From an uncultured Oscillospiraceae bacterium (GTDB lineage: Bacteria; Bacillota; Clostridia; Oscillospirales; Oscillospiraceae), in NCBI GenBank assembly GCA_944383165.1, contig CALWON010000005.1, forward strand, positions 47 to 64,046: 64,000 nucleotides of DNA, written 5' to 3'. Below, in pieces: positions 19,431-27,968 of the stretch (its first letter is position 1; every line of letters begins with the position of its first letter). The position numbers and the translations under genes were made by a program. The notes below the pieces were generated by a model. That model was given only the letters and a program-made list of their open reading frames with translations. It was not told where the DNA came from and ran no database searches.

Positions 19431-20639
19431 TTAATCCTCATCCCCCGCTTTAAAGTTATAAATGGGTCGGATGATTTTCACCACTTCTGCCGTTGGTCCA
19501 ATGTTGTTTAAAATACTTTCCATGTCTTTGTATGCCATTGGGCATTCATCTAAGGTTGCCTTACTCACCGAAGTGGTATAAATATCTGCCATTTGTTTTT
19601 TGAACTCAGAGACGGTAAAGGATTGTTTTGCATCTGCCCGGCTCATCAGCCTCCCTGCACCGTGTGGTGCAGAGCAGTTCCAATCCTCATTTCCTTTCCC
19701 TACACACAAAAGACTTCCATCTCTCATATTGATTGGAATGAGCAGTTTTTCCCCAGCTTGGGCAGAAACTGCCCCTTTTCTCAAAATCATCTGGTCTGTA
19801 TCAATATAGTTGTGAATTGTGGTGAACTGCTCCTCTACATGGAGCTTCATCCCCTTTACAATTTCATCCATCATTGCCTGCCGGTTGAGCATAGCAAATT
19901 CTTGAACAATTTTCATATCATGAATGTATCGGTCAAACCATGCACCTGATACATAGGCAAGTGCTTTTGGAATGTTGGTCTGCTTTAGGTTCTTTAACTT
20001 TTTCAGCTCTTTTTGAATCTCTTTGTCCCGTCCCTCTGCCTTCATCTGTGCAATCAACACCTGAATAGAGGCGTCATCTGTACCATTCAGGACTTTGTAG
20101 CCCATTTCTTGATAATAATTTGCCACTTCTACACCCAAATGACGGCTGCCGGAGTGGACCACAATATAGAGGTTTCCATCCTCGTCTCTGTCTACCTCAA
20201 TAAAATGATTGCCTCCACCTAATGTACCAATACTTTTCTCTGCCCGCAGCAGGTCTACCTGTTTGGCACAACACAGCTCTGAAAGTGGTACCTCTCGATG
20301 GTACTTGTGTGCCTTGGAGCGGATGGAAAACCCAGATGGGATTTTCTCATAAATCAGCTTATCCAGCTTTTGTAGCTCCAGATGGGATTCCCGAATACGG
20401 ATGGTTTCCATCCCACATCCAATATCAACTCCCACCAGATTGGGTACTACTTTGTCTGTAATGGTCATGGTTGTTCCAACGGTGCAGCCAGCACCAGCAT
20501 GAATATCCGGCATCAACCGAATGCGACTGCCTGTTGTAAATTCTTGATTGCACAGTTCCTGTACCTGTGCAATTGAGGCACTATCCACAATATCCGTAAA
20601 AATTTTTGCCTCATTATATTTTCCTTTAATTTCAATCAT
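19431..20639 (-). CDS. rtcB: RtcB-family RNA 2',3'-cyclic phosphate/5'-OH ligase
   Basis: MPDIHAGAG, VGVDIGCGM, GTLGGGNHFIE, HSGSR, HNYID, LRKGA, SAPHGAGR, DECPMAYK. Confidence 0.96.
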   Translation of the reverse strand: MIEIKGKYNEAKIFTDIVDSASIAQVQELCNQEFTTGSRIRLMPDIHAGAGCTVGTTMTITDKVVPNLVGVDIGCGMETIRIRESHLELQKLDKLIYEKIPSGFSIRSKAHKYHREVPLSELCCAKQVDLLRAEKSIGTLGGGNHFIEVDRDEDGNLYIVVHSGSRHLGVEVANYYQEMGYKVLNGTDDASIQVLIAQMKAEGRDKEIQKELKKLKNLKQTNIPKALAYVSGAWFDRYIHDMKIVQEFAMLNRQAMMDEIVKGMKLHVEEQFTTIHNYIDTDQMILRKGAVSAQAGEKLLIPINMRDGSLLCVGKGNEDWNCSAPHGAGRLMSRADAKQSFTVSEFKKQMADIYTTSVSKATLDECPMAYKDMESILNNIGPTAEVVKIIRPIYNFKAGDED

Positions 20640-20709
20640 AGCTTCCTTCCAATCTGATACAATTCATAGTTGATGGACAACAGAATGTGGAACAATTCAA
20701 AGTGTCATT

Positions 20710-21261
20710 TTAATCTACATCTACCCACACAAGATGTTTGCCACAGTGGAGGCATTGAAACAAATACCCCTGAATACTTCCACCATTCTCCATCATTTCA
20801 ATCATTTCTTTTTGTTCCTCATCCCACATTGGGTCATCCAATACTTCCTCCATAATACCCAATTCCTGCAATTCCTCCGCTCCCACATAACCCAAAAAGG
20901 CACAAAAATCACCACAGTGGGCACGCCAGTACTCCTGTTGAAACCCACAGTATCCTGGTGTGCGATGAATCAGTTCATCCAATTTGTCCGGATCATCTAC
21001 TCCATCATCTACGGAGCAATCATCCTGAAAGGCACCGTCAAATTTTTTTGCCGCTGCACCACTGGAAACACATTCCGGGCAGAGGTTGTGGACTGTCTCA
21101 ACTGTATAAAATGGTCCATGATAGACCATATTTGTCTTTTTTCCACAACAGCCACAGACCACTTCATCCTCTGTCTTCTGAAATGCTCCTGATTCTATTG
21201 GATTGGGATGGTAACGAAACACTGGCAATGAATCTGATGGTTGTTTTTTTGCTGTCTTCAT
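20710..21261 (-). CDS. CbrC/UPF0167-family protein (colicin E2 tolerance-like, Zn-binding)
   Basis: [15 protein letters not shown]...[55 protein letters not shown]. Start behind a GAGGAGG RBS. Confidence 0.85.
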
Positions 21262-21280
21262 GGTTCTATCCTCCTCATTG

Positions 21281-26173: not shown

Positions 26174-27900
26174 AGTAGATCCTCCTCATCATTATCATCA
26201 ACCCAGATATCCCGCTGTACCCAGTATTCCAGTTCTTCCAGATGCTGACGTAATTGCTCACGTTCCCGAGCCATACGGATTTGGCTGTCAGATTGTAGCA
26301 TCTGTCTCAAGCGTTGGATGATGTGGGCTGCCTCCATCCGCCGGTCACCAGACAACTCAGCAAACAGCCGCTCTGCTCTGGAGAGAAGCAAGAGATTCTC
26401 CTCCTGTGGCATGGAGCGGTTGGGAAGTGTATTCAACCGTGCTAAAGCCTCAGCAATCTCCTCTTCCGACCAGTTGAGCTGGGGGTTAAGGATGATGGTA
26501 TGTTGCCGGTCTCCTCCACTGCCCTGTGCTGTTACCTCCAAAATACCATTGATGTCGTAGGCAAATGTAACTTCTACCCATTGCTTCCCCGCTTTATCTG
26601 GTGGAACTGTTACCGATAACTTTCCTAAACGAAGATTGTCAACAGCATAGTAGTTTTCACCTTGATAGATGATTACATCAACACACCGTTGACCATCGGA
26701 GAGTGTAAAAAAGCGTTCTGTGTGACGGGCAGGGAGAATACTGCTTCTTTGTATCAGGATAGCCATATGTGGGTTGTTGTCCCGTATATCATTACAAACA
26801 GAGGTACCTAAAGAAAATGGGCATACATCTGTCATCACAATATCCCGAAGATTTCCATCCCGCTGCTTAATACCAGCACACACTCCAACCCCAAATGCCA
26901 CAGTTTGGTCTGGTCTCTCCATGAAAGTGGGACGTTTTGAAAACAACCCTTCCAGATAATCCACAAAAATTTCCAGCTTAGATGAGCCACCTACTAACAC
27001 CACATCATCTATCTCTGAAATTGGGATGCCACTGTCTCGAAACGCCTGGGCAATAACCTCCTTGACCTGCTGGAAGATAGGGCGACAAATCTTAGCTAAA
27101 ATTTCCCGATTGAGTGAAACGCTTTGGGTCTCCTGACCGATTTGAAACGCAAGGATACATCCTTTTTCAGATTTAGACAGCCCTATTTTCCCTTTCTCTG
27201 CTAGGGCAAGAAGCTGTCTTTTCTGTTTCATATCCAGGGAATTCCACGTCAGGTTGGTCTTTTCACAAAAATAATCAGCAATCGCTTGGTCAATATTGTC
27301 CCCACCCAGCCGATTGTTTCCTGAAATCGCCACAATCTCCACCATATTTTCAAAACAATCTACCACACTCACATCCAGGGTTCCACCACCAAAATCAATG
27401 ATTAACAGCCGTTGTTCCTCTCCCATGGTAGCACATCTGTGATACAGAGCCGCAGCAGATGGTTCATTGATTAGCCGTTTCACTGGAAGCCCTGCCAGTT
27501 GGGCTGCCAGCCGTATTGCACAACGCTGATGATCATTGAAATAGGCAGGAACGCTGATGATGGCTTCTTCAATCTCCTCCCCTAGAGCCTCTCTGGCATT
27601 TTGATACAACTTCTTAAGAACCAAAGCAGATAACTCATGTGGCAAGAATGTCTTGTCTCCCAACAGAAATTTCTTCTCTGTCCCCATCCAAGTCTTGAAG
27701 GAACTGATTGTCTCTGAGGGATGGGTAATCAGCCGTTCCTTTGCAATGGCACCCACGGTGATGGTCCCATCTTCTAATATGCCAACACAGCTCGGTGTCA
27801 AAAACTCCCCCCACTCATTGGGGAGCAGTTCAACCTGCCCGTTTCGAAACATACTGACCAGAGAATTTGTCGTACCTAAATCAATTCCAATAATCGCCAT
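26170..27900 (-). CDS. hscC: Specialised Hsp70 chaperone, HscC-like
   Basis: GIDLGTTNS, SVPAYFND, NEPSAAA, DFGGGTLDVS, VLVGGSS, YDINGILEV. Short HscC-type C-terminus (EENLLLLSRAERLFAEL); 576 aa. Confidence 0.85.
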   Translation of the reverse strand: MAIIGIDLGTTNSLVSMFRNGQVELLPNEWGEFLTPSCVGILEDGTITVGAIAKERLITHPSETISSFKTWMGTEKKFLLGDKTFLPHELSALVLKKLYQNAREALGEEIEEAIISVPAYFNDHQRCAIRLAAQLAGLPVKRLINEPSAAALYHRCATMGEEQRLLIIDFGGGTLDVSVVDCFENMVEIVAISGNNRLGGDNIDQAIADYFCEKTNLTWNSLDMKQKRQLLALAEKGKIGLSKSEKGCILAFQIGQETQSVSLNREILAKICRPIFQQVKEVIAQAFRDSGIPISEIDDVVLVGGSSKLEIFVDYLEGLFSKRPTFMERPDQTVAFGVGVCAGIKQRDGNLRDIVMTDVCPFSLGTSVCNDIRDNNPHMAILIQRSSILPARHTERFFTLSDGQRCVDVIIYQGENYYAVDNLRLGKLSVTVPPDKAGKQWVEVTFAYDINGILEVTAQGSGGDRQHTIILNPQLNWSEEEIAEALARLNTLPNRSMPQEENLLLLSRAERLFAELSGDRRMEAAHIIQRLRQMLQSDSQIRMAREREQLRQHLEELEYWVQRDIWVDDNDEEDLL

Positions 27901-27939
27901 ATATGTACTCGCTCCTTACTGATACCACCTTTTCTTTCC

Positions 27940-27968
27940 ATTCTACATCTGCTTATTTTATGTGTCAA
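27940..27968 (-). promoter_or_regulatory. Near-consensus sigma-A promoter of the hscC cluster
   Basis: TTGACA-17 bp-TAGAAT, about 30 nt upstream of the AAGGAG RBS. Confidence 0.8.

Follow-up and report, generated by a model that had tools for sequence, protein, structure and literature searches.

The question raised by the locus studied here is whether six adjacent genes on the minus strand work as one system or are two things that happen to stand next to each other. The genes lie in a stretch of 64,000 nucleotides (nt) from an uncultured Oscillospiraceae bacterium (contig CALWON010000005.1 of assembly GCA_944383165.1, positions 47 to 64,046), called the window below, which belongs to a 2.38-Mb draft genome. 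In the direction of reading they encode an Hsp70 of the predicted HscC type, a giant J-domain protein (called giant J), a DUF4241 protein, a NADAR protein, a UPF0167/CbrC-family protein and an RtcB-family RNA ligase, and both the common strand and, by Pfam, the identities that an initial annotation had assigned to the six open reading frames (ORFs) are borne out. In that annotation the six genes were taken as a single module, a candidate damage-response system against several toxins or phages. Based on comparison with other genomes, we propose that the string is made up of two neighbouring units that are evolutionarily independent, unit 1 (27968..23006) with the Hsp70 and giant J genes and unit 2 (22888..19431) with the other four genes, and we give this reading a probability of about 0.7.

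We consider unit 1 at first. A search with giant J against 5.8 billion proteins gave 27 related clusters, and the contigs of these clusters, together with loci from a genome collection and from genomes of the same genus, provided 19 distinct giant-J neighbourhoods. At 16 of the 18 loci that could be assessed for it, an Hsp70 gene is located immediately upstream of the giant J gene, often with the stop and start codons overlapping. Homologues of DUF4241, NADAR, CbrC and RtcB are present at none of the 19 loci within the fetched flanks, as checked by tblastn (E<1e-8) over at most 10 kb. Downstream of J, the next gene is mostly on the opposite strand, and when 125 ORFs flanking 17 of the loci were assigned to Pfam families, 117 different families were counted, the commonest matching only four ORFs, i.e., there is no recurring partner. 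Moreover, the order of the Hsp70s in their tree parallels the order of J-protein identity. The Hsp70 and giant J genes are a self-contained, translationally coupled two-gene cassette, with relatives of giant J occurring in Flavonifractor, Faecalibacterium, Intestinimonas, Agathobaculum and further Oscillospiraceae, and with full-length relatives in only about five of the genomes of the genus that were searched. It is noted that one locus (L038, G037:C32:5001-25000; 7310-15483, minus strand) has a version of the cassette with two J genes, in the order giant J of 1086 amino acids (aa), Hsp70 of 591 aa and giant J of 1045 aa. Having two such paralogues, which share 39% identity, recalls the presence of both DjlB and DjlC at the hscC locus of Escherichia coli.

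We then consider unit 2, for which the comparison genomes are four larger genomes of the same genus as the window (G014, G025, G033 and G036). In all four, homologues of DUF4241, NADAR and CbrC occur in the same order as in the window and on one strand, spanning 16-19 kb of tightly packed genes, and in some genomes the region is present in two or three copies. The DUF4241 homologues (62-64% identity) stand at the head of the arrays, full-length NADAR homologues (67-68%) are present in 5 array copies, and the CbrC homologues (65-70%) come after a giant polyimmunity protein in every array copy. Each stretch of 19-20 kb contains about 15-20 same-strand ORFs, the spacing and content of which differ from genome to genome. 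As tallied with Pfam over four copies, these arrays are dominated by the catalogued immunity domains SUFU, SUKH (SMI1_KNR4, SUKH_5/6), Imm68, Imm33, Imm51, Imm32 and Imm-NTF2, and the arrays further hold DUF4253, DUF4261, DUF7832, DUF5713 and a KptA/Tpt1 RNA 2'-phosphotransferase. Single proteins of 1873-2232 aa in the arrays join six to eight immunity-type domains. In G033 and G025 the RtcB orthologues, with 88-89% identity, are found 4-5 kb past CbrC, flanked by SUKH, DUF2262 and SF0329 before and by DUF4261 after, and with this placement the four genes of unit 2 are collinear with a single long array that extends over at least 29 kb in G033. When the window genome is compared with these relatives, the identity is 90-94% for DnaK and 88-89% for RtcB, while it is 62-70% for the other three genes. 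Judged from these identities, the divergence of DUF4241, NADAR and CbrC is the accelerated divergence or exchange that is expected of immunity genes. The four genes of unit 2 are thus most likely a condensed heterogeneous polyimmunity and repair array.

The window's Hsp70/J pair is present in none of the relatives' arrays examined. The initial annotation had itself named the lack of co-occurrence in other genomes as the result that would speak against a single module, and this is what is found on both sides, with the four genes at none of the 19 giant-J loci and the pair in no array of the relatives, so that the single-module reading fails. The idea that several toxins are countered can be kept for the four downstream genes, because they appear as a condensed polyimmunity and repair array with homologues in immunity arrays; it does not extend to the Hsp70/J pair. 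It is also noted that a second and different Hsp70/J pair exists beside an immunity array. The array is that of G033, and at its far end (L044, G033:C9:69401-89400; 10380-12759, minus strand) a short canonical DnaJ-domain protein of 219 aa with the HPD motif and a DnaK-like Hsp70, 633 aa as called and 65% identical to the DnaK of that genome, are encoded convergently.

Within the species of the window the arrangement is constant. The window sequence recurs in chicken-gut metagenomes, and the same 14-kb arrangement is present, at about 1% divergence, in conspecific strains from four further metagenome runs of chicken gut. All four runs were searched for presence/absence variants of unit 1 or unit 2, with none found.

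The signals along the string are as follows. Upstream of the Hsp70 gene (26170..27900, minus strand) lies a sigma-70-type promoter-like site, TTGACA-17-TAGAAT (27940..27968, minus strand), which matches the consensus at 11 of 12 positions and is the best in the region. The stop codon of the Hsp70 gene and the start codon of the giant J gene (23006..26173, minus strand) overlap as ATGA, with GAGGAGG a few bases 5' of the J ATG. The remaining gaps along the string are 117, 15, 19 and 70 nt, and the string is closed by an intrinsic terminator-like hairpin with a 14-bp stem (19368..19398, minus strand). No CIRCE element was found in the whole window with 3 mismatches tolerated. In all these points, namely the near-consensus promoter, the single terminator, the ATGA overlap, the gaps of about 15-120 bp and the lack of a CIRCE/HrcA element, the description in the initial annotation was accurate. 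The largest gap is that between the J gene and DUF4241, i.e., between the two units, and in it sits a candidate internal promoter with an extended -10 element, TTCAAA-16-(TG)TACAAT (22951..22978, minus strand), having 9 of 12 matches plus the TG; no terminator-like hairpin is present in this gap. Note that across the region 22 promoter-like sites are found versus 22.8 expected from shuffled sequences, and because there is no enrichment, the promoter calls are to be read as consensus matches only. Metatranscriptome contigs of 151-248 nt fall on RtcB, CbrC, DUF4241 and the 3' end of J, leaving the J/DUF4241 junction uncovered.

The window Hsp70 (576 aa; Pfam HSP70 PF00012, 372 bits) scores under every NCBIfam cut-off for DnaK and HscA. 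The hallmarks of HscC are a length of 550-580 aa, a deletion in lobe I of the nucleotide-binding domain, an insertion in loop L1,2 and a short lid (PMC8215388). In the alignment, the window protein lacks the region of DnaK residues 76-101 and carries several inserted residues at loop L1,2 of the substrate-binding domain, and its C-terminal lid aligns with that of HscC, not of DnaK. The catalytic ATPase residues and the J-contact residues (equivalents of R167/N170) are kept. In a tree of only 16 sequences, in which HscC is on a long branch, E. coli HscC, a second Hsp70 of the window genome encoded on contig C43 and all the giant-J-linked Hsp70s are split from DnaK and HscA with 100/100 support. 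A biochemical criterion for the HscC subfamily is an ATPase that is stimulated solely by its own DjlB/DjlC-type J-protein and that is independent of GrpE; the indels and the tree split support, on the side of sequence, the placement of the window Hsp70 in this subfamily. The window genome has three Hsp70 genes in all, with that on contig C19 belonging to a canonical hrcA-grpE-dnaK-dnaJ operon. The locus on contig C43 (C43:6462-11360) encodes a 590-aa Hsp70, which has 40% identity to E. coli HscC, a 621-aa J protein with an HPE motif and a hydrophobic segment near aa 304, and a 414-aa DUF1266 protein; these components, Hsp70, membrane J protein and DUF1266, are those of E. coli ybeU-djlC/hscC.

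In giant J (1055 aa), the only part that Pfam recognises is a DnaJ match at aa 4-46, with 22.8 bits being under the gathering score of 27.8. The fold of a J domain is nevertheless present, as Foldseek matches it to 2och with a probability of 1.0, a target TM-score of 0.67 and a root-mean-square deviation of 3.3 A. Where canonical DnaJ has HPD, giant J has NPE (NPEEHPEKF), and the variants in the family are NPE, SPE, HPE and RSE, with HPD in no aligned member. The closest J domain of E. coli is that of DjlB (38% identity, E=1e-10), DjlB and DjlC being the best matches, and both of these read HPETDPQGF, i.e., HPE rather than HPD (K-12 672000-690000, locus L040). Since DjlC does stimulate the ATPase of HscC (PMC8215388), the Glu in place of Asp is a trait of the family and not a sign of decay; in the clade of the window the His of the motif is lost, with the Glu in common with DjlB/DjlC. 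Together with the indels and the split in the Hsp70 tree, the match to DjlB sustains the analogy to HscC and DjlB/DjlC that had been drawn earlier for the pair. No transmembrane segment was found in giant J, the top 19-residue hydropathy of which is 1.29 versus 2.0-2.4 in DjlB/C.

The AlphaFold model of giant J has a mean predicted local distance difference test score of 80.9 and consists of the J domain (1-55), a disordered linker (56-98), a helical region (about 100-500) and an alpha+beta region (about 500-1055). The alpha+beta region ends in two modules (about 700-880 and 880-1055) that are tandem duplicates of each other by hhalign, with a probability of 97%. When the full model and a separate model of the C-terminal 356 aa (700-1055) were compared with the Protein Data Bank (PDB) by Foldseek, only the J domain was matched at E<=0.001, and a profile of giant-J sequences against the PDB likewise found only the J domains of DnaJ proteins. 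The body of about 950 aa is without structural match, and the pair is an uncharacterised system of the HscC/DjlB-C type. A profile search against 1.84 billion representatives at E<1e-30 gave 114 clusters, about 45 of which are full length. Many of the matches cover only the J domain and the helical core and then diverge, two of these partial matches ending in DUF1963/TYPP and one bearing SUKH. Closer relatives have a C-terminal SUKH extension, to which the duplicated C-terminal module of giant J has no relation by hhalign. TYPP is predicted by the Aravind group to be a protein-interaction, chaperone-like domain (PMC4275035). From this architecture, giant J likely follows the logic of class-C J-proteins, with the J domain recruiting a private Hsp70 and the variable ends binding clients. 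As a side observation, in the relative P0002 (59% identity to giant J) the C-terminal extension, of about 150 aa (residues about 1085-1235), is neither SUKH nor any Pfam family and thus is a third type of add-on module at the same position.

The first gene of unit 2 (22157..22888, minus strand) encodes a DUF4241 protein of 243 aa (Pfam, 204 bits). In G014 and G025, DUF4241 is the C-terminal domain of proteins of 1072-1076 aa, and a paralogue at the same locus has SUFU there. This swap of DUF4241 and SUFU at the same C-terminal position provides direct evidence, from protein architecture, for DUF4241 as an immunity-type module; no mention of DUF4241 was found in the literature searched. The paralogues of about 1072 aa are encoded at L025:7417-10635, L025:12351-15569 and L026:16684-19914; they share an N-terminal scaffold of about 870 aa, 24% identical overall, and of these proteins only the copy that bears SUFU gave detectable TPR motifs. 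A kinship between the giant-J family and these scaffold proteins was considered, and the two are unrelated by hhalign.

The NADAR protein (21281..22141, minus strand; 286 aa; Pfam NADAR, 191 bits) is above the cut-off of TIGR02464 with 179.6 bits and matches PDC-M42C of PADLOC with 160 bits. Its residues 1-113 (21800-22141, minus strand) are a Trp-rich extension with no match to a Pfam family, and the whole of it is conserved in the homologues from four related genomes. On comparison, this extension proved to be unrelated to the N-terminal extension of the relatives' CbrC. Neither an ADP-ribosyltransferase domain nor another component of PDC-M42 was found beside NADAR by Pfam and PADLOC. PADLOC run on all six proteins matched NADAR only and recognised no known defence system, which gives no backing to the role in phage defence that had been suggested for the locus.

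The third gene (20710..21261, minus strand; 183 aa; Pfam, 206 bits) has its likely start at 21261 behind an AGGAGG ribosome-binding site, a longer ORF with a start at 21312 overlapping NADAR. Its product scores 184.9 bits with the NCBIfam CbrC model NF040891, under the equivalog cut-off of 300 bits, and by this score it belongs to the broader UPF0167 family only and is not a CbrC equivalog. The fourth gene (19431..20639, minus strand) encodes the RtcB-family protein of 402 aa (Pfam RtcB, 221 bits), in which the motifs VGVDIGCGM, GGGNHFIE, HSGSRHLG and APHGAGR are readable, with the metal-binding Cys/His and the GMP-accepting His in place. The release-factor-linked RtcB model, TIGR03073, gives it 102 bits versus a cut-off of 271.8, and no release-factor domain was found by Pfam among the six genes, so that there is no adjacent prfH. 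An in-frame TGA in an RtcB paralogue of G014/G025 was considered as a selenocysteine codon and turned out to be an ordinary stop codon.

With the two units taken separately, the following picture can be drawn. In unit 1, the DjlB/DjlC-type J domain would dock on the Hsp70 and the large J body would presumably select a specific client, and in the relatives the helical core is kept with C-terminal modules that differ. In unit 2, DUF4241 and the Cys-rich UPF0167/CbrC protein would give immunity against the toxins of rivals, presumably by binding them, NADAR, as an enzyme, is predicted to cleave off ribosyl or ADP-ribosyl adducts, and RtcB is predicted to reseal RNA that has been cut by ribonuclease toxins. 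The data show the identities of the six genes, a conserved cassette, further loci of this cassette that lack the other four genes, and the collinear position of these four in immunity arrays of relatives; the protective activities, and the choice of toxins that would be countered, are what we infer from the comparison. It is also noted that the relatives' arrays have a KptA gene, NADAR being a KptA-linked family.

Some of the data weigh against the two-unit reading, and they can be considered together with the alternatives that they favour. The comparison is of limited breadth, as it covers about 19 cassette loci and four array genomes, all of which are Oscillospirales. If the six genes were one operon, the chaperone pair would fold or activate the protective gene products or handle the same toxins, and the string would result from two modules having fused recently in this lineage. 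The string is bounded by a single strong promoter and a single strong terminator, and since the 117-nt gap has no terminator-like hairpin and the arrangement is fixed in conspecific strains of at least four other samples, the six genes may be co-transcribed. Moreover, some relatives of giant J carry SUKH or DUF1963 as fused interaction modules, and the SUKH domain in particular leaves room for a functional link between the units. Against this operon stand the promoter-like site with the extended -10 element that precedes DUF4241 and the junction that no metatranscriptome contig spans. The six-gene combination is present in no other genome examined, with the arrays of relatives existing without the pair and the pair existing without arrays. 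We thus regard the one-operon reading as unlikely, and the fusion origin within it as equally so.

The other alternative is that accessory and housekeeping genes with no relation to each other have piled up by chance in a variable region, in which case RtcB would serve general RNA repair, NADAR would be a YbiA-like N-glycosidase of riboflavin intermediates and DUF4241 and UPF0167 would have nothing to do with toxins. The cut-off that NADAR exceeds in TIGR02464 is indeed that of a model named 'riboflavin biosynthesis intermediates N-glycosidase'. RtcB diverges like core genes and has a housekeeping context in G089, where the orthologue with 86% identity (L048, G089:C4:8000-27000) is located downstream of comEC, between holA and an rnmV-like gene; in the window comEC, holA and the rnmV-like gene are contiguous (4352-8284) and RtcB is 11 kb off. 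From the two placements, RtcB has moved between the housekeeping site and the immunity array, and it may be a gene for general RNA repair that is resident in these genomes and not dedicated to the array. In addition, more distant homologues of CbrC and DUF4241 can stand alone among housekeeping genes, the 2012 immunity catalogue (PMC3482391) names none of the four families, and the immunity role of the four genes is predicted from their neighbourhood and from the domain swap only. A chance pile-up would, however, leave unexplained that the four genes are collinear with the relatives' arrays full of bona fide immunity domains, that DUF4241 is interchangeable with SUFU in a fusion protein and that the three genes other than RtcB diverge much faster than core genes. 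We consider the pile-up, and with it the set of unrelated roles, quite improbable, and the two-unit reading is preferred.

A bolder possibility for unit 1, which we regard as a long shot, is that the HscC-type Hsp70 and giant J cassette is itself a conflict system that captures incoming toxin domains through the J adaptor. The adaptor would consist of the conserved helical core and interchangeable C-terminal modules, which are the tandem alpha+beta modules here and SUKH or DUF1963/TYPP in relatives, and the captured toxin would be passed to the private Hsp70 for ATP-driven unfolding or disposal. If this possibility is true, the position beside a polyimmunity array would not be accidental and a physiological role would be provided for the long-unexplained HscC branch of Hsp70s.

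Returning to the two independent units, the proposed "six-gene damage-response system" is corrected into two ordinary kinds of unit. In gut Oscillospiraceae, polyimmunity arrays recurrently include DUF4241, UPF0167/CbrC, the long NADAR and an RtcB in collinear order, which provides context-based predictions of function for DUF4241 and for the little-studied UPF0167/CbrC family and widens such arrays from proteins that bind toxins to enzymes predicted to repair damage. On the side of unit 1, giant soluble J-proteins, which here are paired with an HscC-type Hsp70, have about 45 full-length representative clusters in gut Clostridia, and they offer a tractable handle on the function of HscC-type chaperones, still listed as open in a 2021 review (PMC8215388).

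Finally, we compare the two units with known systems. The nearest to unit 1 is E. coli HscC with DjlB/DjlC (hscC-djlC-ybeU / djlB-ybeR; Kluck et al. 2002 via PMC8215388). As there, the J gene is dedicated and adjacent; the Hsp70 is like E. coli HscC in length, indels and grouping in the tree, and the J domain is most similar to those of DjlB/DjlC, with Glu replacing the Asp of HPD. By contrast, the partner in the window has 1055 aa and is unanchored whereas DjlB/DjlC have about 480 aa and a C-terminal membrane anchor, its motif is NPE versus HPE, and the window pair has no DUF1266 neighbour.

In unit 2, the NADAR domain is in common with the DarT1-NADAR systems and with PDC-M42 of PADLOC. NADAR domains are N-glycosidases that replace Macro in DarT-DarG-like systems and are tied to RNA repair of the KptA type (PMC9503650). 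Different from these systems, the window NADAR has the extra N-terminal domain of 113 aa, and no DarT gene or other component is near it. With the RtcB2-PrfH module unit 2 has in common an RtcB-family ligase in a toxin-countering context, the PrfH gene being lacking in the window; RtcB2 protects E. coli from colicin E3 (PMC9223846, PMC13166195), and E. coli CbrC has been reported to be protective against colicin E2 (PMC3599342).

As a whole, unit 2 is closest to the polyimmunity loci described by Zhang, de Souza, Anantharaman, Iyer and Aravind in 2012 (PMC3482391), the genes of which have the same orientation and small gaps, are probably polycistronic and strain-variable, and are common in gut Firmicutes. 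The text of that paper is without DnaJ, Hsp70, chaperone, RtcB, UPF0167, CbrC, YbiA, DUF1963 and DUF1266. The window array is likewise tandem, on one strand and closely spaced, no toxin gene is adjacent among the six window genes, and the content varies between related genomes. The variation in the number and type of genes is seen across the relatives, with the conspecific strains of the window species being invariant. The polyimmunity array is a known kind of locus, and what is new to it, relative to the 2012 catalogue, is the membership of DUF4241, UPF0167, the long NADAR and RtcB. Unlike the catalogued loci, that of the window has only four genes, all from families that the catalogue does not name, and unlike the binders that make up such loci, two of the four are enzymes with a predicted role in damage repair, for which an enzymatic immunity member, Imm-ADP-RGHD (PMC3482391), gives a precedent.

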